64,000 nt of DNA from Candidatus Daviesbacteria bacterium. GTDB lineage: Bacteria; Patescibacteriota; Microgenomatia; Daviesbacterales; UBA10151. Location of the stretch: contig JACOXD010000011.1 in the NCBI GenBank assembly GCA_016176465.1, positions 12,318 to 76,317 of the forward strand. Reading direction: 5' to 3'. The notes under the pieces are model-generated. The model worked only from the letters and a program-made list of their open reading frames with translations, ran no database searches and was not told the origin of the DNA. Position 1 is the stretch's first letter. Each line of letters opens with the position of its first letter. This document shows, piece after piece, positions 5,977-53,766 of the stretch. The translations under genes were made by a program, and so were the position numbers.

Positions 5977-6699
5977 TCAGTTAATGGTCGTATACTGAAC
6001 ACCTGTGGGCAAATAATCCTTATAAAATGGGTTGTCCAAGATATATTTTATGCTTGATTTACCCATTCCAAACTTATCCCCAATAGCTTGCAAGGTTAGC
6101 TTCTCTTTTATTCTGAAGTTAAAGATTGCTTTTACCTTTTCAAACTCATTCTTATCAATGACCAAATCACTCTTTTGTGCCATATTACGCTTCTTTAACT
6201 TAAAGCCAAGCGGTAACATATCAGGTGATCCAAGTCTTCTACCCTGCCTTGTAAGTTCCTGTAGTGCATCAATTGTACGTTCTGCTATCAGATCCCGCTC
6301 CATCTGTGCCATAGCTCCCATGACTGTAAGAAAAAACTTACCAGAAGCAGAACTTGTATCTATATTCTCGTTTAGACTTATAAATTGAATATCATTTTTT
6401 GCAAAAACATCTTCAATAAGATAGAGGAGGTCCCGAGTTTTACGGGTTAATCGGTCTAATTTGTAGCAAATAACACCATCTATTTTCTTTTCCTTGACTA
6501 AATTTATGATTTTTTGAAGTCCTGGTCTATTCATGGTCTTACCAGATTTACCCTCCTCAATAATCATTTCCACTAAATCCATGTCCTTTAAATCCGCATA
6601 AGCCATAATTTTATGCTCCTGATTATCTAAGCTAACACCATCACGGCTCTGCTCAAGAGTTGATACCCTGGTATATCCAATTACTCTAAGCTTTTTCAT
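5977..6699 (-). CDS. Serine recombinase (resolvase/invertase type, N-terminal catalytic domain)
   Basis: VIGYTRVSTLEQ ... DGVICYKLDRLTR ... catalytic-Ser resolvase motifs. Confidence 0.85.
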   Translation of the reverse strand: MKKLRVIGYTRVSTLEQSRDGVSLDNQEHKIMAYADLKDMDLVEMIIEEGKSGKTMNRPGLQKIINLVKEKKIDGVICYKLDRLTRKTRDLLYLIEDVFAKNDIQFISLNENIDTSSASGKFFLTVMGAMAQMERDLIAERTIDALQELTRQGRRLGSPDMLPLGFKLKKRNMAQKSDLVIDKNEFEKVKAIFNFRIKEKLTLQAIGDKFGMGKSSIKYILDNPFYKDYLPTGVQYTTIN

Positions 6700-7241
6700 T
6701 TTTCTTCCTCATCAACAATTTTTATCCTTCTGTATCCCTTAATTGGTTTGCCATATGCGTAATGCGTTGGTGAACCTAAGATAGATTGCGGACGTCCTTT
6801 GTATTCTGGTTGATCTAATTTCTTAGTGAAATGTTTAACATCCGCTGTGAGTTTTCTGATGTCCTCGTTACAGGTATATAGATTTATTGCTTGGTGTAAG
6901 AAAACCGCCATAGAACCGCCAGGTTGGGCAGTTAATACTGGAGATAGCTTTTCAATAGCCTCATTAAACTGTTGTACTAATTTCGATCTTTCTTCTGATT
7001 TATCCGGTAAAGGAAGTCCAGCATATACTAATAACTCGGTACCATTTATCCTGTACCATTTACCTCCAAATTTATTAGCCTGTAACCTTCCTGATTTGAT
7101 AGCTCGATGAATAGTGGCTACTGAAACATGAAGCAATTCAGCTGCTTCCTCTGCTGTATAGGTCGTGAAATGTAATATTGGATCGCTCATAATGTTTAAG
7201 TCTACATCAACGATGATGTATTTGTCAATATTAAGATTCAT
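6696..7241 (-). CDS. Excisionase-family HTH DNA-binding protein (Xis/MerR-like) with C-terminal extension
   Basis: TAEEAAELLHVSVATIHRAIKSGRLQANKFGGKWYRING; 4-bp overlap with recombinase start. Confidence 0.55.
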   Translation of the reverse strand: MNLNIDKYIIVDVDLNIMSDPILHFTTYTAEEAAELLHVSVATIHRAIKSGRLQANKFGGKWYRINGTELLVYAGLPLPDKSEERSKLVQQFNEAIEKLSPVLTAQPGGSMAVFLHQAINLYTCNEDIRKLTADVKHFTKKLDQPEYKGRPQSILGSPTHYAYGKPIKGYRRIKIVDEEEK

Positions 7242-8089: not shown

Positions 8090-8860
8090 AACACCTTCGA
8101 GGTGGTCTAGGCAGGCACCTCTTCTCTATTCTAAAACCAAGTGCTTGATCTTATCTAATTCTCTAGCATAGCTTACTTGATCCAAAACAAATTTTTTATA
8201 TTCATTTATAGATTTAAAAAAACCTAAAACCTCCTCAGAGCTTGTAATCTTCTCTGCTTTTGGTACCAAATACTCAAAGTAAGAAGACCATTGGTAGTTT
8301 TCCAAATCCTCCGTCTTAATTAAGTAGGAAGTTACTGGGTTTAGATGAATATATCTTGATAGATGAATAAACTGTTCATCAGAATCAACAAACACTGCCT
8401 TGAATAACCCCTGAAGAAGTGGACCCACTCTTTTATTTTTGGTGTTAAAGTATTTGGTATAAGAGTTAGAAAAGTTAGATATAAATTTAGATATACCATT
8501 TTCTTTCTTCTGCTTTAGTAGGAAGTGAAAATGGTTGGGCATTAAACAAAAAGCAATAATTTCTACTAATACATTCTCATCATCTAAGTTTTTCCATAAT
8601 TCATCTTTTTTGTCATTTGCGAGATCTAAAAACTTGGAAAATTTCAAAGGCAGACTTCCGTAGCGGTAAAACTTTAAAGTTTCTAAAGCTCTTGAATATT
8701 CCCTGCTTTTGGTAAAAATTGGACGCTTCTCTACACCTCGATTAAAAACATGATAGATGATCTGCTCATTTGCAAAAACAAACTTTCTATTTGTGGGCAT
8801 CTATTTAAAGTATGGACTAAAAAAGGACAGGTGTCAACCCAGACCACCTTTCAGGTGGTT
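8090..8860 (-). mobile_element. IS200/IS605-like element (HUH Y1 transposase flanked by CACCT-N3-AGGTG hairpins; TTGACA in left end)
   Basis: Hairpins at 8092-8104 (caccttcgaggtg) and 8844-8858 (ccacctttcaggtgg) flank tnpA-like ORF; same motif flanks second copy at 42.5 kb. Confidence 0.6.
8126..8800 (-). CDS. tnpA: IS200-like / REP-associated tyrosine (HUH, Y1) transposase
   Basis: HuH motif LMPNHFHFLL and catalytic Tyr in SRYIHLNPV; ~70% identical paralog at 42589-43233. Confidence 0.75.
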   Translation of the reverse strand: MPTNRKFVFANEQIIYHVFNRGVEKRPIFTKSREYSRALETLKFYRYGSLPLKFSKFLDLANDKKDELWKNLDDENVLVEIIAFCLMPNHFHFLLKQKKENGISKFISNFSNSYTKYFNTKNKRVGPLLQGLFKAVFVDSDEQFIHLSRYIHLNPVTSYLIKTEDLENYQWSSYFEYLVPKAEKITSSEEVLGFFKSINEYKKFVLDQVSYARELDKIKHLVLE

Positions 8861-17907: not shown

Positions 17908-19278
17908 TTAGAGCTTAAATCTTCTGTCTGCTAAAAAAGGATTTGCTTTCCTATAAACTTTAACTGAGTTAAGTAAAACCCCTCTTTGCAAAGTAAACTC
18001 TCCAAACTTATCATTAATTTTATCTAAAGCTTTAGTTATAACTTCTTTTACTTTTACTTCTGGAAGAAGATTTAAGTTTTCAGGAGTTGTTGGTTTTAAA
18101 TTAGAAATAGAAATACCTATCATTCTTATAGCTTTCTCATCCCAAAGGCTCATGAATATCCCCCACCCTGTTTTAAATATTTCCAAACCGTCACTAGTAA
18201 AAGAAACTGTGCTTTGCGCTCCATCTCCTAAGAATCCAATCCCGGTTTGGAATTGAGGCGACAAACCGGGATTGTAGGTTTGTTTAAATGCATATCTAAA
18301 CCAAAGGGAAACAGTTTTACCTACTAGTTTTTTGGCTCGCATTCTTCTTGCAACTAATTCTGAAAGCTTAAGCAAGATTTGTTTAATTTCTTCATAAGAG
18401 TCTGCGTCATGATCTATTGTGTGTCTATGACCAATTGATTTTACTTCTTCTTTCTCATAAAAAGGGCTGACAGGAGAATCATCCAATCCCCTGCTCATGT
18501 TATATAAAGTTTGTCCATAACTTTTAAAAGAGGCTAATAAATACTCCAAGTTTACTCTTCTTAAATCAGAAAAATTAAAAATCCCCATATTATTTAACCT
18601 CCTTTTAATCCTAAACCCTATCCCACAAACCTCATTTAGCTCAATTTGGTCTAAAATTCTCATTGCTGCCTGCTCATCTGCTATTACCAGCAACCCATCG
18701 GGTTTGTATAAAGACCCAGCTAATTTAGCTAAAAATTTGTTATAAGAAATCCCAATAGAACATGTAATCCACTCCCCAATCTTAGCTCTTATTTGGGATT
18801 TAATATCTATAGCCATTTCAATAACGTCATTCCCGACCCGCTTCGCCGGAGCGAGAGCGAGGCGAGCCTGATCGGGAATCTGAATAGATCTCCCAATCGA
18901 GTTGGAAGATGACATTTTTAATTTGGGTGATGACTTCTTGGGCTGAGGCAGTTCTATAAATGCCTCATCGATAGAGAAAAGCTCTATATAGGGGGAATAG
19001 CTTTTTAGAATATTTAAAAATTTTTTAGTAGTAGATAAGTATTTATCAGAATCCCCTTTTACTAAAATTAATTGTGGACAAAGTTTTCTAGCTTCATATA
19101 AATTCATCCCAGTTTTTACCCCAAACTTTTTAGCCTCCACTGATGCAGCACCAACTACAGTCCTCTTCATTCTATCTCCACCAGTTACCCCAATAGGTTT
19201 ACCTCTAAGTCTTGGGTTAGCTTGCTGTTCAACCCTGGCAAAGTAGCTATTAAAATCTATATGTAATATTGTTCTCAT
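17908..19278 (-). CDS. dinB: DNA polymerase IV (Y-family, DinB) carrying two in-frame palindromic insertions
   Basis: ILHIDFNSYFARVEQ, SIDEAFIEL, YNKFLAKLAG; insertions at 18237-18274 and 18829-18879. Confidence 0.8.
   Translation of the reverse strand: MRTILHIDFNSYFARVEQQANPRLRGKPIGVTGGDRMKRTVVGAASVEAKKFGVKTGMNLYEARKLCPQLILVKGDSDKYLSTTKKFLNILKSYSPYIELFSIDEAFIELPQPKKSSPKLKMSSSNSIGRSIQIPDQARLALAPAKRVGNDVIEMAIDIKSQIRAKIGEWITCSIGISYNKFLAKLAGSLYKPDGLLVIADEQAAMRILDQIELNEVCGIGFRIKRRLNNMGIFNFSDLRRVNLEYLLASFKSYGQTLYNMSRGLDDSPVSPFYEKEEVKSIGHRHTIDHDADSYEEIKQILLKLSELVARRMRAKKLVGKTVSLWFRYAFKQTYNPGLSPQFQTGIGFLGDGAQSTVSFTSDGLEIFKTGWGIFMSLWDEKAIRMIGISISNLKPTTPENLNLLPEVKVKEVITKALDKINDKFGEFTLQRGVLLNSVKVYRKANPFLADRRFKL
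18237..18274. repeat. RPE-like palindromic element (perfect 13-bp stem CAATCCCGGTTTG/CAAACCGGGATTG) in frame within dinB
   Basis: Encodes YNPGLSPQFQTGIG; near-identical copies in uvrB and uvrC. Confidence 0.7.
18829..18879. repeat. GC-rich palindromic in-frame insertion in dinB (ATTCCCGA-35 nt-TCGGGAAT)
   Basis: ~70% GC segment in AT-rich gene; encodes extra loop IPDQARLALAPAKRVGNDV absent from canonical DinB. Confidence 0.5.
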
Positions 19279-19301
19279 CTGTGTTCGACCGTAGTGGAGA
19301 A

Positions 19302-19568
19302 CTACAACTTAAAGTTGTTTATTAAGATCTTTCTCTTTTTATCTTGACTCCAACCTTTAATCTGTTTTTCTCTTATCCTAGCTTGTTCATAATCATTATG
19401 TTGCTCAAAGTACACTAATCTCTTAACTCCATGCTTAGCAGTATATTTACCGCCTAACCCGCTTAAATGTTGTTCAAATCTTAGCTCTGGTTTCCATGTT
19501 AAGCCGGTATAATATGTTCCATCTCTACACTCAATGATATAGACATACCAGCTCCATTGATTTTTCAT
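19302..19568 (-). CDS. GIY-YIG nuclease family protein (UPF0213-like)
   Basis: WYVYIIECRDGTYYTGLT ... RFEQH ... GWSQDKK. Confidence 0.7.
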   Translation of the reverse strand: MKNQWSWYVYIIECRDGTYYTGLTWKPELRFEQHLSGLGGKYTAKHGVKRLVYFEQHNDYEQARIREKQIKGWSQDKKRKILINNFKL

Positions 19569-19606
19569 AGGTACTTCTCCATGCGCTTCGCTTAGTCGAA
19601 GATAAA

Positions 19607-19855
19607 CTACTCAGACTCCTCTACAGCCTCCAGAAACCACTTAAGAGACTTAAGTTCAAATTTTAATCTATAAAAATTTCCATCTTTACTTGAAACTGAG
19701 AAAAAATAAACCAAGTTACCCTCCTCTTTAGCTGTATGAACTAAATTTATTTTATCTATCTGAATTTTTCTATCTTTCCAGAAAAAAATATAAGGGTGGA
19801 CTTTAACTCCTTTAAAAAATACCCAAACATTGATAGGTTCAGATAGTTCAAGCAT
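19607..19855 (-). CDS. Hypothetical protein
   Basis: 82 aa ORF. Confidence 0.3.
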   Translation of the reverse strand: MLELSEPINVWVFFKGVKVHPYIFFWKDRKIQIDKINLVHTAKEEGNLVYFFSVSSKDGNFYRLKFELKSLKWFLEAVEESE

Positions 19856-19986
19856 AAAAGGTGATAAGTAACTTTTCGTATCTCGTATTACGTATCTCTT
19901 ATCACTATCTGTTATATACCCAAAGAAAATCCAAAGTCAATATAGAAAATTGTAAATAAAATTCATGGTAAAATTAAGCCTCTATT

Positions 19987-39305: not shown

Positions 39306-40619
39306 TTATATACCTACTCTGCTAAACATTTTTTTACTTCTTAACTTAAGGTGATAGTTAAGTGCAAAACGGTGGGATTCATCTCTGATTTTTTGCAATA
39401 AACGAAGAGACATTCTTCTTTTAGGGATCTTTACAATTTCTCCCTCAATTGGATATAACCTCTCCATTTTTTTTGCCAATCCAAATATAGGAATACTTAC
39501 TTCTCGTTTCTCTAAGATAGCGGCCACCCCTCTAACCTGACCTCTCCCTCCATCGATTATAATTAAATCTGGAAAGGGCCACTCAGGATGATTTAGTCTC
39601 CTCCTCATCATCTCAGATAGCATTGCTACATCATTAGGTTTTCCAGTAATTTTTATTTTAAACTTTCGATACTGCGATTTATCTATTTCTCCATTTGCTA
39701 AAACTACAAGTGATCCTGAAGCTTCCCCCCCTTGAATATTAGAAATATCATAACCTTCAATCCTCTTAGGCAAATTAGGCAATTTCAAATCCGTCATTAG
39801 CTGCTTTAATCCCAACTTATTTTGGTCTTCCAAAAAATTAGGATTATCTAAATACATTGAAATCTCAGTTGGTTGGGTAATATATTCAATCCCAGAAATT
39901 GTTTTCTTTAAAGTTTCTGCCTTTTCAAATTGCAAGTTTTTTGCAAGATCTTTCATTTCAACTTGCAACTCACTTAACAAAACTTCTTTTTCTCCACCTA
40001 TAAATTTAATAAAGCGGTTAATAATTTTTCGGTACTCTTTTGCATCTATCAAACCTATACAGGCTCCGGGACAAAGTCTTAGATGATAGTAAAAACATGG
40101 TCTAGCTTTCCAATCCCGGATTGGATTTGAATTGACAATCCGGGATTGGATGGTTATTTTCGATGGATTAGAACACCAAGGGAAGACTCTCCTTATTTTT
40201 TTTAAAGTTTGATTAACAGTACGGGATGAAGGAAAAGGACCAAAATATTTCAATGCATCGCTTAGTTCCTGCTTTCTGGAAGTTATTATCCTTGGGAACT
40301 TTTCCTTAGTGACTTTAATATAAAGATAATCTTTATTATCAGTTAAGCGGACGTTAAAGGTGGGCAAATTTTTTTTAATTAAATTGGCTTCCAAAATAAG
40401 TGCTTCTAATTCCGATTCCACCACAAAAAAAACAATGTCGGCAATACTTTCTACTAATTGGGCTGTTTTTAAAGATGATCTATCTCTAAAATAGGAGGCA
40501 ACCCTGGACTTTAAATCTACTGCTTTGCCCACATATAAAATGTCACCTTTTAAATCTTTAAATATGTAAACGCCACTTTTGTGAGGAATATCCTCTTTCG
40601 ATAAATTCTTGGGAATCAT
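39306..40619 (-). CDS. uvrC: Excinuclease ABC subunit C (short form lacking C-terminal HhH2) with in-frame palindromic insertion
   Basis: GIY-YIG SGVYIFKDLKGDILYVGKA, UVR domain, RDESHRFAL; 437 aa. Confidence 0.8.
   Translation of the reverse strand: MIPKNLSKEDIPHKSGVYIFKDLKGDILYVGKAVDLKSRVASYFRDRSSLKTAQLVESIADIVFFVVESELEALILEANLIKKNLPTFNVRLTDNKDYLYIKVTKEKFPRIITSRKQELSDALKYFGPFPSSRTVNQTLKKIRRVFPWCSNPSKITIQSRIVNSNPIRDWKARPCFYYHLRLCPGACIGLIDAKEYRKIINRFIKFIGGEKEVLLSELQVEMKDLAKNLQFEKAETLKKTISGIEYITQPTEISMYLDNPNFLEDQNKLGLKQLMTDLKLPNLPKRIEGYDISNIQGGEASGSLVVLANGEIDKSQYRKFKIKITGKPNDVAMLSEMMRRRLNHPEWPFPDLIIIDGGRGQVRGVAAILEKREVSIPIFGLAKKMERLYPIEGEIVKIPKRRMSLRLLQKIRDESHRFALNYHLKLRSKKMFSRVGI
40110..40149. 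repeat. RPE-like palindromic element (15-bp stem CCAATCCCGGATTGG/CCAATCCGGGATTGG) in frame within uvrC
   Basis: Encodes IQSRIVNSNPIRDW; read in a different frame from the dinB/uvrB copies. Confidence 0.7.
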
Positions 40620-42534: not shown

Positions 42535-43265
42535 TAGCTTGACACTAGCTTGACACCTGAAAGGTGTACGCATAAACTTTACTAGTATATGCCTGGTAGA
42601 CTTGTACCCCTAGTTAATGGAGAGTTTTATCATATTTATAATCGTGGTAGTGATAAGCGCAATATTTTTTTGCAAAATAGAGATTACATCAGATTTCAAA
42701 AAACTTTTTATTATTACCAATTTTTAGGTCCGAAGGTAAGATTTTCTAAATTTGCTAAATCTACCTTAAACCTCTTTAATCCAACACTAAATGAAAAATT
42801 AGTAGAAATTCTCTGCTTTTGTTTAATGCCTAATCATTTCCACCTACTTTTGGTTCAACAAAAAGAAAACGGCATTTCTTCCTTTATTAGTCAACTTGCT
42901 AATAGCTACACCAAGTACTTTAATACGAAATATTCTAGGGTAGGTGCATTATTTCAAGGAGTTTTTAAGTCTGTGCGGATTTCATCAGATGAGCAGCTAA
43001 TTCATATATCACGCTACATACATATTAACCCAATAGTATCTGGTTTAACAAAGAACCTCAAAAACTATAAGTGGTCATCATATTCTGAATACTTACGAAA
43101 TAGAGAAACTTTTTGCCAGATCAGCACTATTTTAAATCTTTTCCCTTCTTCCAAAAAATACTCTGAGTTTATTGAAAATCAAATTAGCTATGGAACCACT
43201 CTCGAAATGATTAAACATCAAAAAATTGATTAATTAAATTCGTGCGGACACCTGAAAGGTGCAAA
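42535..43265 (+). mobile_element. IS200/IS605-like element, second copy
   Basis: LE tagcttgaca-tagcttgacacctgaaaggtgtac (42535-42568) with TTGACA/TAAACT promoter; RE hairpin cacctgaaaggtg 43249-43261. Confidence 0.6.
42589..43233 (+). CDS. tnpA: IS200-like / REP-associated tyrosine (HUH, Y1) transposase
   Basis: LMPNHFHLLL and SRYIHINPI; paralog of 8126-8800. Confidence 0.75.
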   Translation: MPGRLVPLVNGEFYHIYNRGSDKRNIFLQNRDYIRFQKTFYYYQFLGPKVRFSKFAKSTLNLFNPTLNEKLVEILCFCLMPNHFHLLLVQQKENGISSFISQLANSYTKYFNTKYSRVGALFQGVFKSVRISSDEQLIHISRYIHINPIVSGLTKNLKNYKWSSYSEYLRNRETFCQISTILNLFPSSKKYSEFIENQISYGTTLEMIKHQKID

Positions 43266-43266
43266 G

Positions 43267-46170
43267 TTAAATAACTTTTGCTAAATATTGACCTGTGTAA
43301 GAGGATTTATTCTTTGCAATGTCTTTTGGAGTACCTTCTGCTATTACTTTTCCACCTAAATCTCCACCTTCAGGTCCTAAATCTATTACCCAGTCTGCGT
43401 TTTTAATTACATCTAAGTTGTGTTCAATAATCAAAACAGTATTTCCCAGGTTAACTAACTTTGTCAAAATTGTCAGTAACCTTTCTATATCTGCAAAGTG
43501 CAAACCAGTTGTAGGCTCATCCAGAATATACAAAGTAAGTCCTGTTTGTCTTTTGGATAATTCCGTTGCTAGTTTTATTCTTTGGGCTTCTCCACCTGAT
43601 AAAGTTGGCGCAGGTTGACCCAAGTGAATATAACCTAATCCTACCTCATTTAAAACTTGTAATTTATTTTTAGCTTGTGGGATATTGGCAAAAAATTCCA
43701 GTGCCTCCTCAACTGTCATATCTAGCACATCAGCAATATTTTTATCCTTAAAGTGAATTTCCAAAGCTTCTCTGTTATAACGTTTCCCATTACATGCCTC
43801 ACAAGTTACATAAATATCAGGCAAAAATTGCATCTCTATTTTAATTTGTCCTTCTCCCTCGCAAACTTCACACCTACCTCCTTTTACATTAAAAGAAAAC
43901 CTACCTGGCTTATATCCTTTAATTTTTGCCTCAGGGGAGGTTGCAAATAACTCTCTAATAAAAGTAAAAAGTCCTGTATAAGTTGCTGGATTAGATCTAG
44001 GCGTTCTGCCAATAGGTGATTGATCAACTAAAATTACTTTATCAATATTCTCATCCCCCTCCAATCTTTCAAATTTGCCCGGACGTTCTTTAGAGTGATA
44101 AAACTTAGAAGCTAGGGATTTAAACAAAATATCATGGATTAAAGTAGATTTACCCGATCCAGAAACCCCTGTTATAGCTATGAAATTACCCAAAGGGAAC
44201 TCTACATCAACATTTTTTAAGTTATGTTCCGAGGCTCCCAAAACTTTTAAAATGGTGGTATTTTCTTTAATTAATCCGTTAGTCTTGACTTCCACCTTTT
44301 TTCTACCTGCCAAATAAGCACCGGTCAAGCTCTGCTTATTTTTCATTAACTCCAAAGGAGTCCCAGTAGCAACAATTTTTCCGCCGTGTTCTCCAGCTCC
44401 CGGGCCGATTTCATAAAGAATGTCGGCGTTTTCCATTGTTTCACTATCATGCTCACTAACAATAACTGTATTTCCCAAGTCTCTTAACTTTTTTAGGGTT
44501 GTAATTAATCTTCTATTATCTCGCTGGTGCAATCCAATTGATGGTTCATCTAAAACATATAAAACCCCTGATAAACCTGAACCTATCTGGGAAGCAAGCC
44601 TAATTCTTTGTGCTTCTCCTCCTGCCAAAGTCATAGAAGAGCGATCTAGCGTTAAATAATTTAAACCAACGTCCATTAAAAACTGTAATCTTGATTCAAT
44701 CTCTTTAACTACAGGTTTAGCAATTGTTAATTCCCGTTCACTAAGCAATGGGGTTTTTAACTCCTTAACCCAATCCAAACCCTGAGCTATGGATTGAGAA
44801 GTAACTTCGGAAATGTTGGAATCATTAATAGTGATGGATAAAACTTCATCTTTTAACCTTGCGCCGTTACACTTGGGACAAATCTCCCGCAGCATGTATT
44901 TTTCAATTTCACCCTTAACATAATCAGACTCGGTTTCAGAGTAGCGCTCTTTTAAATAAGGCACGATCCCCTGGAAAGTTGAGTAAAAATGAGTCCATCG
45001 TCCTTGCCTATTTTTACCTTCAACTTTAAACTGCTTGTCTCCATCCCCAAATAATAATACTTTTCTGGCCTGCGCGGATAGCTGGCCAAGTCTGGTACTC
45101 AGATCAAAACCATACTCTGCCCCGACAGCTTCAATAAGCCTGGAAAACCAGGTTTCCGATCCAGCTAAACGCTGCCAGGGCAAAATGCCTCCTTCTCTAA
45201 TAGATAAAATAGGATTTAAGATTGCATCAGCATCTATTTCTAAAAGTGACCCAAGTCCCGCGCAAGTAGGACAAGCTCCATGAGGAGAGTTAAAAGAAAA
45301 AGTTCTTGGTTCTATTTCAGGCAAAGCAATGTTATCTACTGGACAAGCAAACCGCTCTGAATATAAATGATCCTCCATTTTTTTGGGGTTAGTAGGGAAT
45401 TCTAAAGAGGCATCCAAGACTTCCGAAACAATTAATGTTCCCTCCCCCAACTTTAGCGCTGTTTCAACTGATTGATTGAGTCTGGATTTAACTTGTGAAT
45501 CTTTAATAGATTTAGCGTCTAAACTCAATCTATCAACCAGCGCATCAATACTATGTTTATTAGTTTTAATTAACATTAAATCCTCTGATAAATCCCTAAT
45601 CTGCCTATCAATTCTGGCTCTTGAAAATCCTTTTTTCGCAAGATCATCTAAAAGAGAGCTATACTCCCCCTTTCTATCTTTAACAATAGGGGCTAAAATC
45701 ATTATCCTTTTTATCTTTCTATTTGATCCTTCGACTACGCTTTGGATAACGCTCTGTGTTATTTGCTCAACACTCATTCTGGATATTTCCCTGCCACAAA
45801 TAGGACAATGCGGGTGACCAACTCTGGCAAAAAGTAATCTTAAATAATCATAAACTTCTGTTGTAGTGCCTACTGTAGAGCGAGGATTGTGAGAGGCGCT
45901 CTTTTGGTCAATTGAAATAGCCGGAGATAACCCTTCTATATAATCTACATCTGGCTTATCCATTACTCCTAAAAACTGTCTAGCATAAGCACTCAAAGAT
46001 TCTACATATCTTCTTTGCCCTTCAGCATATAAGGTATCAAAAGCTAAGGAAGATTTCCCCGAACCAGAGATACCTGTAAAAACTACTAATTTATTTTTCG
46101 GTATAACTAAATCTATATTCTTAAGATTATGCTGCCTGGCTCCTTTTATAATAATTTTATCTGTTGACAA
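43267..46170 (-). CDS. uvrA: Excinuclease ABC subunit A
   Basis: Two ABC ATPase modules, [33 protein letters not shown], Zn-finger Cys; TTG start. Confidence 0.95.
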
Positions 46171-46254
46171 GGATTCGGGTTCCTTTCGCCCTAAAAAGCA
46201 ATCTATTTTAACATAAAAAATTAACTTTTTAAAGACTAAGTTAGTAGCTAAAGA

Positions 46255-49115: not shown

Positions 49116-51134
49116 TTAACTGCTTAATTCTCTTATTTGATCCCTTAATCTTGCTGCTGTTTCAAAATCTAAAAGTGCTGCAGCATCTCTCATCTGTTTT
49201 TCTAATTCTTTAATAATTCTTCCTCTCTCTTTTAATGGTATATCTTCAACTGTTAATACATCCTTCCCTAATTTTTCCTCAACTTTTTCTATTAACCTTT
49301 CCCTTAATGCTTTTTCTATCGAGCGTGGTTTAATTTTATGTTTTTTATTAAATTCTATTTGATAATTCCTTCTTCTTGAAACCTCATCTATTGCTCCTTG
49401 TATTGATTTAGTAATGGTGTCTGCATACATGATTACTGCTCCATCAACGTGTCTGGCAGCACGACCCATTGTTTGGATTAAAGATGTTTTTGACCTTAAA
49501 AATCCTTCTTTATCTGCATCCAAAATAATAACCAAAGATACTTCAGGTAAATCTAACCCTTCCCTTAAAAGATTAATTCCTACAATTACATCAAATTCCC
49601 CTAATCTTAAACTTTGTAAAATATCAGAACGCTCTAAAGTAGCAATATCTGAGTGTAAATAATTGACTCTAATCCCCTTTTCTTTAAGGTAATCAGTTAA
49701 ATCCTCAGCCATCCTTTTAGTTAAAGTGGTTATTAAAACTCTCTCACCTTTACTTACCCTTTTTTCTACTTCCTTAATTACATCTTCAATTTGCCCCTCT
49801 GTTTTTCTAACAGATACTTGCGGATCAACAATACCTGTGGGTCTTACTAATTGCTGGGCTACATTGTTTGGGCTTCCAATCCCGGTTTGGAACTGAGTTG
49901 ACAAACCGGGATTGTAGCCTGCAAGTGAAAACTCATATTCATCAGGAGTAGCAGAAACATAGACAGCTTGATTAACCCTCCTCATAAACTCCTCAAACTT
50001 TAAGGGCCTATTATCTAGTGCGCTAGGCAACCTAAAACCAAATTCAACTAAAGTCTCCTTCCTGGAGCGATCGCCGTTATACATTCCTCTAATTTGAGGG
50101 ATGGTAATGTGGGATTCATCAATAATTATTAAATAATCTTTAGGAAAAAAATCTAAAAGAGTATAGGGTGGTTCACCTGGATCTCTACCATCAAAATATC
50201 TTGAGTAATTCTCAATCCCATTACAAAAACCAAACTCCTTTATCATCTCCAAATCATAATAAGTGCGCTGTTCTAACCTTTGAGACTCAAGTAATTTTCC
50301 TTGAGATTTTAAATCTTTCAATCTTAACCTTAAATCATCTTCAATTTGAAAAGTTGCTGGTTTAATTAATTGTTGAGGTGTTATATAGTGTTTTGCAGGA
50401 TACAAAGTTAAAGTTTCTAGAGTAGGAATTGACTTGCCAGTAAGAGGATCCAAATGGGAAACTCTTTCAATTTTATCTTCCAAAAACTCAATCCTTAATG
50501 CAAAGTCAGAGTAAGCTGGGAAGATATCTAAAGTGTCTCCTTTTAATCTATACGTTCCTCTTTCAAAGTCAAAATCATTTCGGACGTAAAACATTTTATT
50601 AAGCATCTTTAAGATAGATTCCATTCCTGATTTAACTCCATTTTTTAGTTGCAGTATTGCCCCTCCATATTCCTTCGGTGAACCTAAGTTATAAATACAA
50701 GAAACAGAGGCTACAACTACAACATCAGACCTAGTCATTAAAGAAGTAGTTGTTGAGAGTCGCAGTTTTTCAATCTCCTCGTTAATGGATGCATCTTTTT
50801 CAATATAGGTATCAGATGAAGGAACATAAGCCTCAGGCTGGTAATAATCATAGTAAGAAACAAAATACTCAACGGCATTTTCAGGAAATAAGGACTTAAA
50901 TTCTTGTGCCAATTGCCCGGCTAATGTTTTATTATGAGAGATAACTAGTGTTGGTCTATTTACAGCTTGGATGACATTAGCCACAGTAAAAGTTTTACCA
51001 GAACCTGTTACACCAAGCAAAACTTGATGTTTCTCATTATCCTTAATCCCCCTTACTAATTTCTCAATAGCTTGGGGCTGATCACCAGTAGGCTTAAAAT
51101 CTGAAATTATTTTAAACTTAGACATAAAGTTCAT
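49116..51134 (-). CDS. uvrB: Excinuclease ABC subunit B with in-frame palindromic insertion
   Basis: [10 protein letters not shown], helicase motifs, C-terminal UVR domain; insertion at 49877-49914. Confidence 0.95.
49877..49914. repeat. RPE-like palindromic element (perfect 13-bp stem, same arms as the dinB copy) in frame within uvrB
   Basis: caatcccggtttgg-aactgagttga-caaaccgggattg encodes [14 protein letters not shown]. Confidence 0.7.
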
Positions 51135-51187
51135 TATAGCACTTAAGCGAATATTCCCCGAATAGTAGATTTAAAGATTATGATAGA

Positions 51188-51253: not shown

Positions 51254-51640
51254 GTGCTAAAATCCTCTCTTAATATGGGCCTGGAAGCTTCAATTCACAG
51301 TTTATATGGAGAGTCTGGCGGGGAATTAGACTATCTAGCCTGTCTTACATTAAATCCCAATGATTTATATCTATTAACAAGTCAAATCGATTTAAGATTA
51401 CTTAAAAAGAGAAATCAAGACTTTAATCCGATTACTGTGATCCGACCTAGTATTGTAGTAACTGGCATAGGTGTAGATGGCATCAGACATTACAAAAGCG
51501 CCGTAATAGAAAGAAAAGAAGTGGTAATTCTAGATATTAAAGACTCTCGAACATATCTTTTTAGTGATCAATATGGTTTGTATTTAAAACCTAAAGAAGA
51601 GTTTCAAGTTTGTATGGGAGATAGATTTGAACTTTCCTAG
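51254..51640 (+). CDS. Hypothetical protein
   Basis: 128 aa ORF. Confidence 0.3.
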   Translation: MLKSSLNMGLEASIHSLYGESGGELDYLACLTLNPNDLYLLTSQIDLRLLKKRNQDFNPITVIRPSIVVTGIGVDGIRHYKSAVIERKEVVILDIKDSRTYLFSDQYGLYLKPKEEFQVCMGDRFELS

Positions 51641-51660
51641 TTTATTGTTAAACTTAAAAT

Positions 51661-52389
51661 ATGTTTGATGATTTAGCTGCCATAATTTTAGCTGCAGGTA
51701 AAGGCACAAGATTAAATTCCAAAGATATAAACAAAGTAACTTTAGAGGTTGGGGGTATTCCCATAATTATCCGTATAATTAATATTCTTAGAGAAACAGG
51801 AACAAAAAATATTTTAGTAGTGGTGGGTTTTGCTAAAGATTCTGTAGAAAAACTGCTGGATAAGGACGTTAAAACTGTGGAACAGGCAAATCAGCTTGGT
51901 ACTGGAGATGCAGTTAAAATTGCTTTGGATAAGATCTCAGCCAATACAAAAAATATTTTAATTTTAATGGGTGATGATGCTTATTTATATTCCCCAGCAA
52001 TTTTTAATAATTTTTATAAATTTCACTTAGAGCAAAAATCCGATCTTACTTTTTTAACCACTGTTTTAGAAAACACTAAAGGCTTGGGGAGAGTAATAAG
52101 AAATGAGAATGGAAATCCAGTGAGAATTGTAGAGGATAACGATGCCTCAGATGAAATAAAAAAAATAAATGAGGTAAATTTAGGTTGTTATATATTTAAG
52201 ATGGATTTTTTAAGAAAATACATTGATCAAATTCAAAAAAGTCCTATTACTGGTGAGTATTATTTAGTTGATCTAATTGAAATAGCTATTAAAAACGCTA
52301 GAATAGTAAGAGTCTATACTTTAGAAAACTTTAGCTGGAGAGGGATAAATACCAAAGAGGAGTTAGAGGAAGCTCAAAAATTAATATGA
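51661..52389 (+). CDS. Sugar nucleotidyltransferase (GlmU N-terminal-like)
   Basis: AAIILAAGKGTRLNS ... GDAV ... pyrophosphorylase fold. Confidence 0.6.
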   Translation: MFDDLAAIILAAGKGTRLNSKDINKVTLEVGGIPIIIRIINILRETGTKNILVVVGFAKDSVEKLLDKDVKTVEQANQLGTGDAVKIALDKISANTKNILILMGDDAYLYSPAIFNNFYKFHLEQKSDLTFLTTVLENTKGLGRVIRNENGNPVRIVEDNDASDEIKKINEVNLGCYIFKMDFLRKYIDQIQKSPITGEYYLVDLIEIAIKNARIVRVYTLENFSWRGINTKEELEEAQKLI

Positions 52390-52973
52390 ATTTTAAACCA
52401 ACTAACTATTTTGATTTAACAAACTTTACCCAAGCAGATATATTTGAAGGAGTTGAAAATATTTGGGAAGTATTAAAAAAACTTAGTTCTTATTTAAATG
52501 GGATTGTTATTGACCCTACTGCTAAGGTAGATCCTACAGCTAAAATTTTAGGCCCAGCTATAATTGGAGCTAATACTGTCATCGGATTTAATGCATTAAT
52601 CAGGGAGAATGTAATTACTGGAAGTGATTGCATAATAGGTCACGGAACCGAGGTTAAAAATTCTATAATTTTAAATAACAGCTTCTTTTCTCATATGAGC
52701 TATATTGGGGATAGTGTTATAGGGAATAATATCAATTTTGGGGGTGGAGCAAAAACAGGCAATTTAAGACTAGATAAAGCTCCTGTAACTGTAAAGATAG
52801 GAGAGGAAATTATTGAGACTGGTTTAGAAAAATTTGGTGCAGTTGTAGGAGATAATACAAAGATAGGAATAAATGCTGTTTTAAATCCCGGGACAATTTT
52901 AGGAAAAAATTGTATAGTTTATCCTCTAGTTTCAGTTAATGGAGTTTTTGCAGAAAATTCCAAAATTAAATAA
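52386..52973 (+). CDS. Left-handed beta-helix (hexapeptide repeat) acyltransferase (GlmU C-terminal-like)
   Basis: Hexapeptide repeats IGANTVIG / IGHGTEV / IGDSVIGNN; ATGA overlap with upstream gene. Confidence 0.6.
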   Translation: MNFKPTNYFDLTNFTQADIFEGVENIWEVLKKLSSYLNGIVIDPTAKVDPTAKILGPAIIGANTVIGFNALIRENVITGSDCIIGHGTEVKNSIILNNSFFSHMSYIGDSVIGNNINFGGGAKTGNLRLDKAPVTVKIGEEIIETGLEKFGAVVGDNTKIGINAVLNPGTILGKNCIVYPLVSVNGVFAENSKIK

Positions 52974-53038: not shown

Positions 53039-53069
53039 TTGACAGTTTCGGGAACTGTTTGGTATTGTT
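53039..53069 (+). promoter_or_regulatory. lexA promoter (-35 TTGACA) with overlapping palindrome ACAGTTTCGGGAACTGT, candidate LexA operator
   Basis: TTGACA 53039-44, palindrome 53042-58, -10-like TATTGT ~53064-69, 80 bp upstream of lexA. Confidence 0.4.
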
Positions 53070-53148
53070 ATCAGTAACCTTTGGATTAAACCAAAGACTT
53101 GGATAAGTTGGCAGGTAGACGGAACTGCCAGATTTATCCACCAAATAT

Positions 53149-53766
53149 ATGCCAGTTACCCTTTATCGAAGACAGCGACAAATTTTAACTTTTATTAGAG
53201 ACTATATTGATAAATATGGTTATTCCCCTACTTTAGGGGAAATTGCAGAAGCCATGGGAGTTTCCTCGCTTGCTACAGTCCACGAGCATGTTCAAACTTT
53301 AGCAAGAAAAGGGGTAATAAAAAAGTTTGAAGGTTCTGTAAGAGGAATTGAAGTTTTGGATTACAATTACGGGAACGCTCTAAAAACAGTAGAACTCAAA
53401 GTTTTAGGTTTTATAGCTGCTGGACAACCAATTATGCCCTACACTGATCCAGATGCTACGATTGGAGTATCTTCCAGTTTGGTTAACCAGCATCGAAAAT
53501 CCTTTGTATTACAAGTAAAAGGAGATTCCATGATTGAAGATGGAATCTTAGATGGGGATTTTGTCATTATTGAGGAGCAAAATTTTGCTTATGATGGGGA
53601 TATTGTGGTAGCTCTTTTAGAAAATGGCTTGGCTACTTTAAAAAGATATTTCAAAGAAAAAGATAGAATCAGACTCGAGCCTGCTAATGCTACAATGGAA
53701 CCCATTTATTCAACAGATGTTCAAATCCAAGGAAGATGTGTGGGGGTAATCCGCAGATTTAGGTAA
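53149..53766 (+). CDS. lexA: LexA repressor (S24 peptidase)
   Basis: N-terminal wHTH; AAGQP cleavage site, GDSM Ser, TLKR Lys. Confidence 0.9.
   Translation: MPVTLYRRQRQILTFIRDYIDKYGYSPTLGEIAEAMGVSSLATVHEHVQTLARKGVIKKFEGSVRGIEVLDYNYGNALKTVELKVLGFIAAGQPIMPYTDPDATIGVSSSLVNQHRKSFVLQVKGDSMIEDGILDGDFVIIEEQNFAYDGDIVVALLENGLATLKRYFKEKDRIRLEPANATMEPIYSTDVQIQGRCVGVIRRFR

Follow-up and report, generated by a model that had tools for sequence, protein, structure and literature searches.

The 64,000-nt window studied here, taken from the genome of a Candidatus Daviesbacteria member (Patescibacteria, Microgenomates), carries four short elements that are very probably operators of the SOS repressor LexA, a prediction made from sequence and its comparison across related loci. 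The elements lie upstream of lexA, uvrB and uvrA and of an operon in which a small gene without an assigned function, hereafter orf82, is followed by a GIY-YIG nuclease gene and by dinB. Their conserved architecture is a head-to-tail direct repeat and not a palindrome. A preliminary description of the same DNA had proposed a novel, palindromic LexA operator with a TTCGGG core in front of lexA, uvrB and uvrA; this interpretation proved partly right, the LexA-operator reading being upheld whereas the palindrome and the novelty were not.

The three occurrences picked out in that description were ACAGTT-TCGGG-AACTGT at lexA (53042-53058, which on direct reading overlaps the TTGACA at 53039-53044), TATTCGGGGAATA at uvrB (minus strand, 51152-51164) and GGATTCGGGTTCC at uvrA (46171-46183, adjoining the uvrA TTG start). 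All the strings it quoted, including the palindromes of the dinB/GIY-YIG junction and CTTCG-N6-CGAAG, are present where it had placed them, and Pfam bears out its gene identities (lexA, uvrB, uvrA, dinB and GIY-YIG). The GC content of the window, which it had put at about 30%, was measured at 35%. TTCGGG had been presented as a rare word; in bulk it is not, with nine copies in the window versus 12.9 ± 3.7 in dinucleotide shuffles, but its placement at the three SOS genes is unusual, since the 378 nt in front of these genes hold three of the nine copies (post hoc binomial P ~1.7e-5). In all three copies TTYG starts exactly 11 bp after the start of TTCGGG. The extended pattern TTCGGG-N5-TTYG has exactly three matches in the window versus 0.13 expected, found only at lexA, uvrB and uvrA, and none of 100 shuffles reached three matches. 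Allowing one mismatch added five sites, all intragenic; the resulting eight compare with 4.95 expected, a chance level, and the five were rejected as operators.

For the comparative analysis, 80 lexA loci were fetched, one genome per species, and their upstream regions extracted, while 49 dinB loci were fetched from metagenomes. An unsupervised Gibbs sampler, run with no prior pattern on 76 non-redundant lexA upstream regions, returned TTGACA-NN-TTCGGGTWnTnTTTGGTAWnGT, in which a TTYGG(G)T unit is repeated head-to-tail with an 11-bp period (TTCGG at position 1, TTTGG at position 12) and occupies the promoter spacer. Comparative motif discovery hence places the TTCGGG core common to lexA, uvrB and uvrA within a conserved cis-element, and the same run on lexA upstream regions, an approach that the preliminary description had itself suggested, recovered this element and not the palindrome. 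Because the core was recovered across relatives without a prior pattern, its conservation extends far beyond this genome: the motif was seen in Daviesbacteria, Curtissbacteria, Shapirobacteria, Levybacteria, other Microgenomates and one Paceibacterota (Parcubacteria) genome, with an operator consensus of TTCGGGTWnTn-TTYGGKW. Distant lexA promoters display the repeat plainly, for example TTCGGGTAATC-TTCGTGTAATA and TTCGGTTAATC-TTCGGTTAATA. Among 24 sites of the dinB operon, the columns of the two half-sites correlate at an offset of 11 with values of 1.0, 1.0, 0.93, 1.0, 1.0, 0.69, 0.87, 0.73 and so on, and the correlation extends to columns absent from the matrix used for scanning. A spacing of 11 bp is about one helical turn, so that the two half-sites would lie on the same face of the DNA.

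Sites were scored with a 16-column matrix made from lexA sites only, which was used on the window and on 836 kb of related loci, and with a tandem half-site model, which was run on the window; hits of at least 15 bits were considered strong, and sites of at least 11 bits were counted when computing the fractions of upstream regions given below. The lexA promoter (53039-53068, plus strand) is composed of a -35 TTGACA at 53039-53044, an 18-nt spacer and an extended -10 TGgTATTGT at 53060-53068; it scores 10 matches out of 12, with the TG, in a promoter scan, and its layout is kept in most of the 76 related lexA upstream regions. The predicted lexA operator, TTCGGGAACTG TTTGGTATTGT (53047-53068, plus strand), consists of two half-sites 11 bp apart that fill the spacer and overlap the -10; the lexA-derived matrix gives it 19.7 bits, the tandem model 20.3 bits.

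The predicted uvrB operator, TTCGGGGAATA TTCGCTTAAGT (51141-51162, minus strand), is an exact match to the pattern, scoring 12.5 and 14.9 bits with the lexA-derived matrix and the tandem model, respectively. It spans the -35 and the spacer and ends directly at the extended -10 (TGC-TATAAT), its second half-site TTCG being separate from the -10. Equivalent uvrB sites occur in six related loci (L008, L021, L024, L031, L042 and L046). This promoter also bears on the uvrB start codon. The open reading frame reaches a first ATG at 51134, and this ATG sits inside the -10 hexamer TATAAT (51138-51133), which makes the second ATG, at 51125 and 7 nt after the -10, the likelier start; the uvrB proteins of relatives begin MSK... 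7-8 nt past their own -10. uvrB (49116-51125, minus strand; Pfam UvrB domains) probably starts at 51125, hence with a leaderless mRNA as in relatives and a predicted protein of 669 rather than 672 aa.

The predicted uvrA operator, TTCGGGTTCCT TTCGCCCTAAA (46174-46195, plus strand and thus antisense to uvrA), is likewise an exact pattern match and scores 11.2 bits with the lexA-derived matrix. uvrA (43267-46170, minus strand; Pfam UvrA domains) starts with a TTG at 46170, and the operator lies between this codon and an extended -10 (TAAAAT, 46210-46205, minus strand); it is therefore contained in the first ~25 transcribed nt, over the ribosome-binding region. The uvrA sites of five related loci (L019, L034, L033, L077 and L032) are found at this place too, past the -10 and ahead of the start codon, but in the sense orientation. 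A plus-strand TTGACA at 46164-46169 was considered as a divergent promoter beside this operator and rejected as a coincidence: it lacks a suitably spaced -10, and the uvrA start codon overlaps it.

A fourth operator had been missed in the preliminary description. Located upstream of orf82, which is followed by the GIY-YIG gene and dinB on the same strand, TTGAC-TTTGGATTTTC TTTGGGTATAT (predicted operator 19914-19935, minus strand) runs from the -35 (19940-19936) to the -10 (TATATA, 19918-19913), with the repeat filling the promoter spacer; it scores 16.6 bits at 19920-19935 with the lexA-only matrix and 19.6 bits with the tandem model. The dinB/GIY-YIG junction palindromes (19283-19318) and CTTCG-N6-CGAAG (19586-19601), which had been put forward as further candidate motifs of this operon, score with neither matrix. 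Weaker matrix hits at 6068, 26408, 61660, 2867, 14942, 168, 48984, 34362 and 49517 are all intragenic and were rejected.

Across the relatives, a site of at least 11 bits is present upstream of lexA in 87% of 83 loci, of orf82 in 81% of 37, of uvrA in 38% of 21 and of uvrB in 23% of 22, versus 1% of the upstream regions of 450 control genes; the uvrA and uvrB fractions leave out 21 genes (uvrA or uvrB) whose intergenic region is also that of lexA. The differences from controls correspond to Mann-Whitney P values of 6e-41 for lexA, 9e-6 for uvrB and 0.018 for uvrA. The 836 kb of related loci contain 108 hits of at least 15 bits, of which 101 are upstream of lexA, uvrB, uvrA or orf82/dinB. One of the seven others, in L023 (3551-3566, plus strand), itself lies in a lexA promoter, with an extra gene before lexA, and an additional pattern match in L032 belongs to uvrA, an insertion separating site and gene. 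The gene inserted in L023 between the lexA promoter/operator and lexA encodes a 122-aa, four-helix-bundle-like open reading frame. Good operator matches for which no SOS target was identified were found in L003 (29-44, minus strand), where the downstream gene is beyond the end of the locus, and in L014 (5667-5682, plus strand), where the match adjoins a tRNA gene.

The repressor itself is encoded in the window by lexA (53149-53766, plus strand; 205 aa). It is 100% identical to a Ca. Daviesbacteria LexA, and the best 120 relatives listed, from Daviesbacteria and other Patescibacteria, are 75-86% identical to it. The protein contains the winged-helix domain PF01726 (E 1e-18) and the S24 self-cleaving domain PF00717 (E 5e-28). 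It can be aligned end to end with solved LexA structures, and the motifs for cleavage and catalysis fall in register: AAG at residues 90-92, GDSM at 125-128 and TLKRY at 163-167, which provide Ala91-Gly92, Ser127 and Lys165. Judged by these features, it is a complete LexA with intact cleavage and catalytic motifs. Its recognition-helix region SLATVHEHVQTL (residues 40-51) presumably resembles the Gram-positive type.

Established knowledge of the SOS system suggests how these parts would work together. Two LexA DNA-binding domains would dock head-to-tail on the tandem half-sites, and the bound dimer would exclude or block RNA polymerase, the operators covering the -35-to-10 region at lexA and the dinB operon, the -35 and spacer at uvrB and the first ~25 transcribed bases at uvrA. 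RecA filaments formed on damaged DNA would then trigger LexA self-cleavage at Ala91-Gly92 by Ser127/Lys165, and the cleavage would derepress four units, namely lexA, uvrA and uvrB (nucleotide-excision repair) and the dinB operon (translesion synthesis). How a symmetric LexA dimer can read two half-sites of the same orientation is explained by no structure known to us, and these compact direct-repeat sites would be a good test case for LexA dimer docking.

Other explanations of the same bases have to be weighed. That TTCGGG reached three AT-rich intergenic regions merely by chance, as a short GC-rich word, could be argued from its lack of enrichment in the window, but the excess of the extended pattern and the conservation of the element at orthologous promoters across dozens of species refute this reading, to which we give practically no weight. 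A further explanation, very improbable in our assessment, retains LexA as the binder and has it recognize a short palindrome around each core, namely ACAGTT-N5-AACTGT at lexA, TATTC-GGG-GAATA at uvrB and GGA-N7-TCC at uvrA. These palindromes are truly present in the window, and most characterized LexA boxes are palindromic according to PMC8565304. However, arm sequence and spacing vary among the three, and the comparative data already contradict the model. The lexA arms ACAGTT/AACTGT pair at 6/6 positions in the window genome only; over 62 related lexA sites the mean complementarity is 2.29/6, versus 2.23 ± 0.08 for shuffled columns, and the arms therefore exhibit no covariation. The conserved positions of the frequency matrix display no reverse-complement (dyad) symmetry, and 11 bp further downstream a second conserved half-site follows in direct orientation.

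The conserved bases might alternatively be promoter features, namely an unusual spacer or -16 element, or else a sequence recognized by an alternative sigma factor that serves DNA-damage genes specifically. This is suggested by lexA and the dinB operon, where the element fits exactly between -35 and -10, with the extended -10 overlapping its second half. Because of this overlap, 93 control promoter-like sites of non-SOS genes were examined, and none of them has TTYGG beside the -10, a spacer containing TTYGGG or two half-sites in tandem. In addition, the uvrB second half-site is upstream of the -10 and separate from it, while the uvrA element is downstream of the -10 and beside the start codon, in the window (where it is inverted) as in L019, L034 and L033; together with the controls, these two cases make an operator the unifying explanation. 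Canonical TTGAC(A) and TAnnnT hexamers moreover flank the element, so that a housekeeping-type promoter is already present, and we regard the promoter-feature explanation as improbable. Slightly less improbable, though still unlikely, is that the element is a genuine operator of a DNA-damage regulator other than LexA, since the identity of the binder rests on the genes that bear the site and on the literature. The same gene set nevertheless points elsewhere: the element is best conserved at the lexA promoter itself, the classic signature of LexA autoregulation, and the other targets, dinB, uvrA and uvrB, belong to the standard SOS set. LexA proteins from Patescibacteria are also listed as experimentally validated (PMC8565304), and the motif reported for the group is a direct repeat (PMC7739468). 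LexA is consequently much the most likely binder.

The LexA-operator reading is thus supported by an element that marks SOS-gene promoters in relatives and is rare at controls. Several points weigh against it. The uvrA site of the window is inverted relative to those of relatives, the window uvrA and uvrB sites are weak (11-15 bits) with TTCG rather than TTYGG as second half-site, and only a minority of relatives have uvrA or uvrB sites. Part of the conservation at lexA and dinB could be promoter-derived, owing to the overlap of the second half-site with the extended -10. recA, a usual core target, was not found in the window or in the 129 loci by tblastn with an E. coli RecA query. LexA as the binder, repression and RecA-dependent induction are inferences, and identity with the consensus published for Patescibacteria in 2017 (PMID 28618189) is likewise inferred, from architecture and lineage and not from a base-by-base match.

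The operon led by the fourth operator comprises orf82 (19607-19855, minus strand), which encodes a conserved protein of ~80 aa, the GIY-YIG nuclease gene (19302-19568, minus strand; Pfam PF01541) and dinB (17908-19278, minus strand), encoding a Y-family translesion DNA polymerase (Pfam IMS, IMS_C and IMS_HHH). About 30 of the 49 metagenomic dinB loci display TTGAC-TTYGGGTTnnn-TTYGGrT-TATAT upstream of an orf82 homolog that directly precedes dinB; such homologs stand directly upstream of dinB in 36 metagenomic loci, and of the 38 orf82 homologs in related dinB loci, 25 have an identically placed and oriented site that scores at least 15 bits. Most dinB loci have orf82 immediately beside dinB, and tblastn detected GIY-YIG gene starts in only two of the 129 loci, for which reasons the GIY-YIG gene looks like an insertion into an orf82–dinB operon. 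This insertion may include ACAACTT-A-AAGTTGT, the hairpin at the 3' end of the gene. The best-conserved target besides lexA would be the two-gene orf82–dinB operon and not dinB alone.

The orf82 family has 642 members, all unnamed or annotated as 'hypothetical', and its named sources are Daviesbacteria or Patescibacteria. A Pfam search assigned no family to orf82, similarity to DUF6504 being sub-threshold only. The predicted structure is a confident six-strand, all-beta model (pLDDT 88.5), and a search for structural neighbors of this model returned none that were informative. UmuD or YolD accompany Y-family polymerases in other systems; that orf82 is likewise a new accessory factor of translesion synthesis is an appealing idea, albeit a rather unlikely one. 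The analysis flags it as an unstudied small protein predicted to be co-regulated and co-transcribed with DinB across the group.

The surroundings of lexA, uvrB and uvrA in the window have features of their own. In many relatives (L020, L026, L032, L035, L071 and L077), uvrB and lexA are divergent neighbors with a single operator in the intergenic region common to both. The gap between them in the window holds three plus-strand genes (51254-52973), namely a 128-aa open reading frame, a nucleotidyl transferase and a hexapeptide transferase, two of the three being sugar-nucleotide enzymes, and uvrB has its own operator. The lexA leader of the window (53072-53148, plus strand) measures ~80 nt and forms two stable hairpins (-25.9 kcal/mol, z = -4.4), a stability that none of 200 shuffles attained. 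The leader is unique in the window and matched no Rfam family. In most relatives the lexA -10 lies only 6-8 nt before the ATG, so that the mRNA is apparently leaderless, and a few have different inserts at this place. In the lexA and uvrA leaders of L019, L026, L036, L039 and L071, promoter and start codon are separated by inserted short GC-rich repeats (for example CCTTCGACAAGCTCAGGG and GGTTCGACTTCGCTCACC) that look like small dispersed repeat elements.

Pfam identified LexA, UvrB, UvrA, the Y-family polymerase DinB, GIY-YIG and UvrC among the window proteins, whereas NCBIfam annotation of 20 of them was mostly uninformative. The product of uvrC (39306-40619, minus strand) is short, at 437 aa, with GIY-YIG and RNase H-like endonuclease domains only; Pfam shows neither a UVR nor a helix-hairpin-helix domain. 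Unlike those of uvrA and uvrB, the uvrC upstream region harbors no LexA-type site. Mobile-element genes are present at 5977-7241 (a serine recombinase with an excisionase-like gene), 8126-8800 (a REP-associated tyrosine transposase) and 42589-43233 (an IS200-like Y1 transposase), the last directly adjoining uvrA.

With these results the genome gains a small and concrete predicted SOS regulon, made up of lexA, uvrA, uvrB and orf82–GIY-YIG–dinB, together with a corrected uvrB start codon. They also illustrate that a genuine regulatory signal of an uncultured lineage can be recognized by careful reading of the sequence alone, and that its architecture can be misread when comparative data are lacking. 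The novelty claimed in the preliminary description did not survive comparison with the literature. Sánchez-Osuna, Barbé and Erill (Environ Microbiol 19:3465, 2017; PMID 28618189) described a LexA regulon and its binding motif in Patescibacteria, and PMC7739468 cites their work for a direct-repeat LexA motif that evolved in this group. Table S2 of PMC8565304 lists the LexA of Ca. Collierbacteria GW2011_GWB2_45_17 (Microgenomates) and that of a Parcubacteria member as experimentally validated, with the 2017 study as the source. The published system is from the same superphylum as the window, one of its validated proteins comes from the same Microgenomates group, and a LexA-controlled DNA-damage network with a direct-repeat architecture is common to both. 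Because the direct repeat observed across Microgenomates into Parcubacteria matches the published description, the direct-repeat LexA site of this group is rated as already known and the four window sites as new instances rather than a new kind; knowledge of LexA in Patescibacteria is unchanged by these findings. We consider it doubtful that the consensus TTCGGGT-N4-TTYGG differs materially from the 2017 one, although, if it did, the Microgenomates consensus would be a new variant.

Beyond Patescibacteria, direct-repeat recognition by LexA has arisen independently several times, according to PMC7739468. The nearest analog in architecture is the alphaproteobacterial LexA box GTTC-N7-GTTC, which, as quoted in PMC8565304, is a head-to-tail repeat with the same 11-bp period bound by an ordinary LexA, and whose GTTC tetramer overlaps in sequence with the TTCG of the window motif. 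The window half-site is longer (TTYGGGT), however, the base before TTC is unconserved and the lineage is unrelated. The direct repeat of Balneolaeota, TTACACATATTTTWTACATA, was, according to PMC7739468, found in the same way, first by discovering a motif in lexA promoters and then by comparing genomes; its half-site sequence is unrelated and the phylum is another one. The palindromic SOS boxes of E. coli (CTGT-N8-ACAG) and Gram-positive bacteria (GAAC-N4-GTTC) have in common with the window element the repressor family, the logic of autoregulation and the overlap with promoter elements. As the preliminary description had rightly noted, the window element is unlike both: the two consensus sequences are absent from all four operators, which replace the dyad symmetry of these boxes with a head-to-tail repeat.
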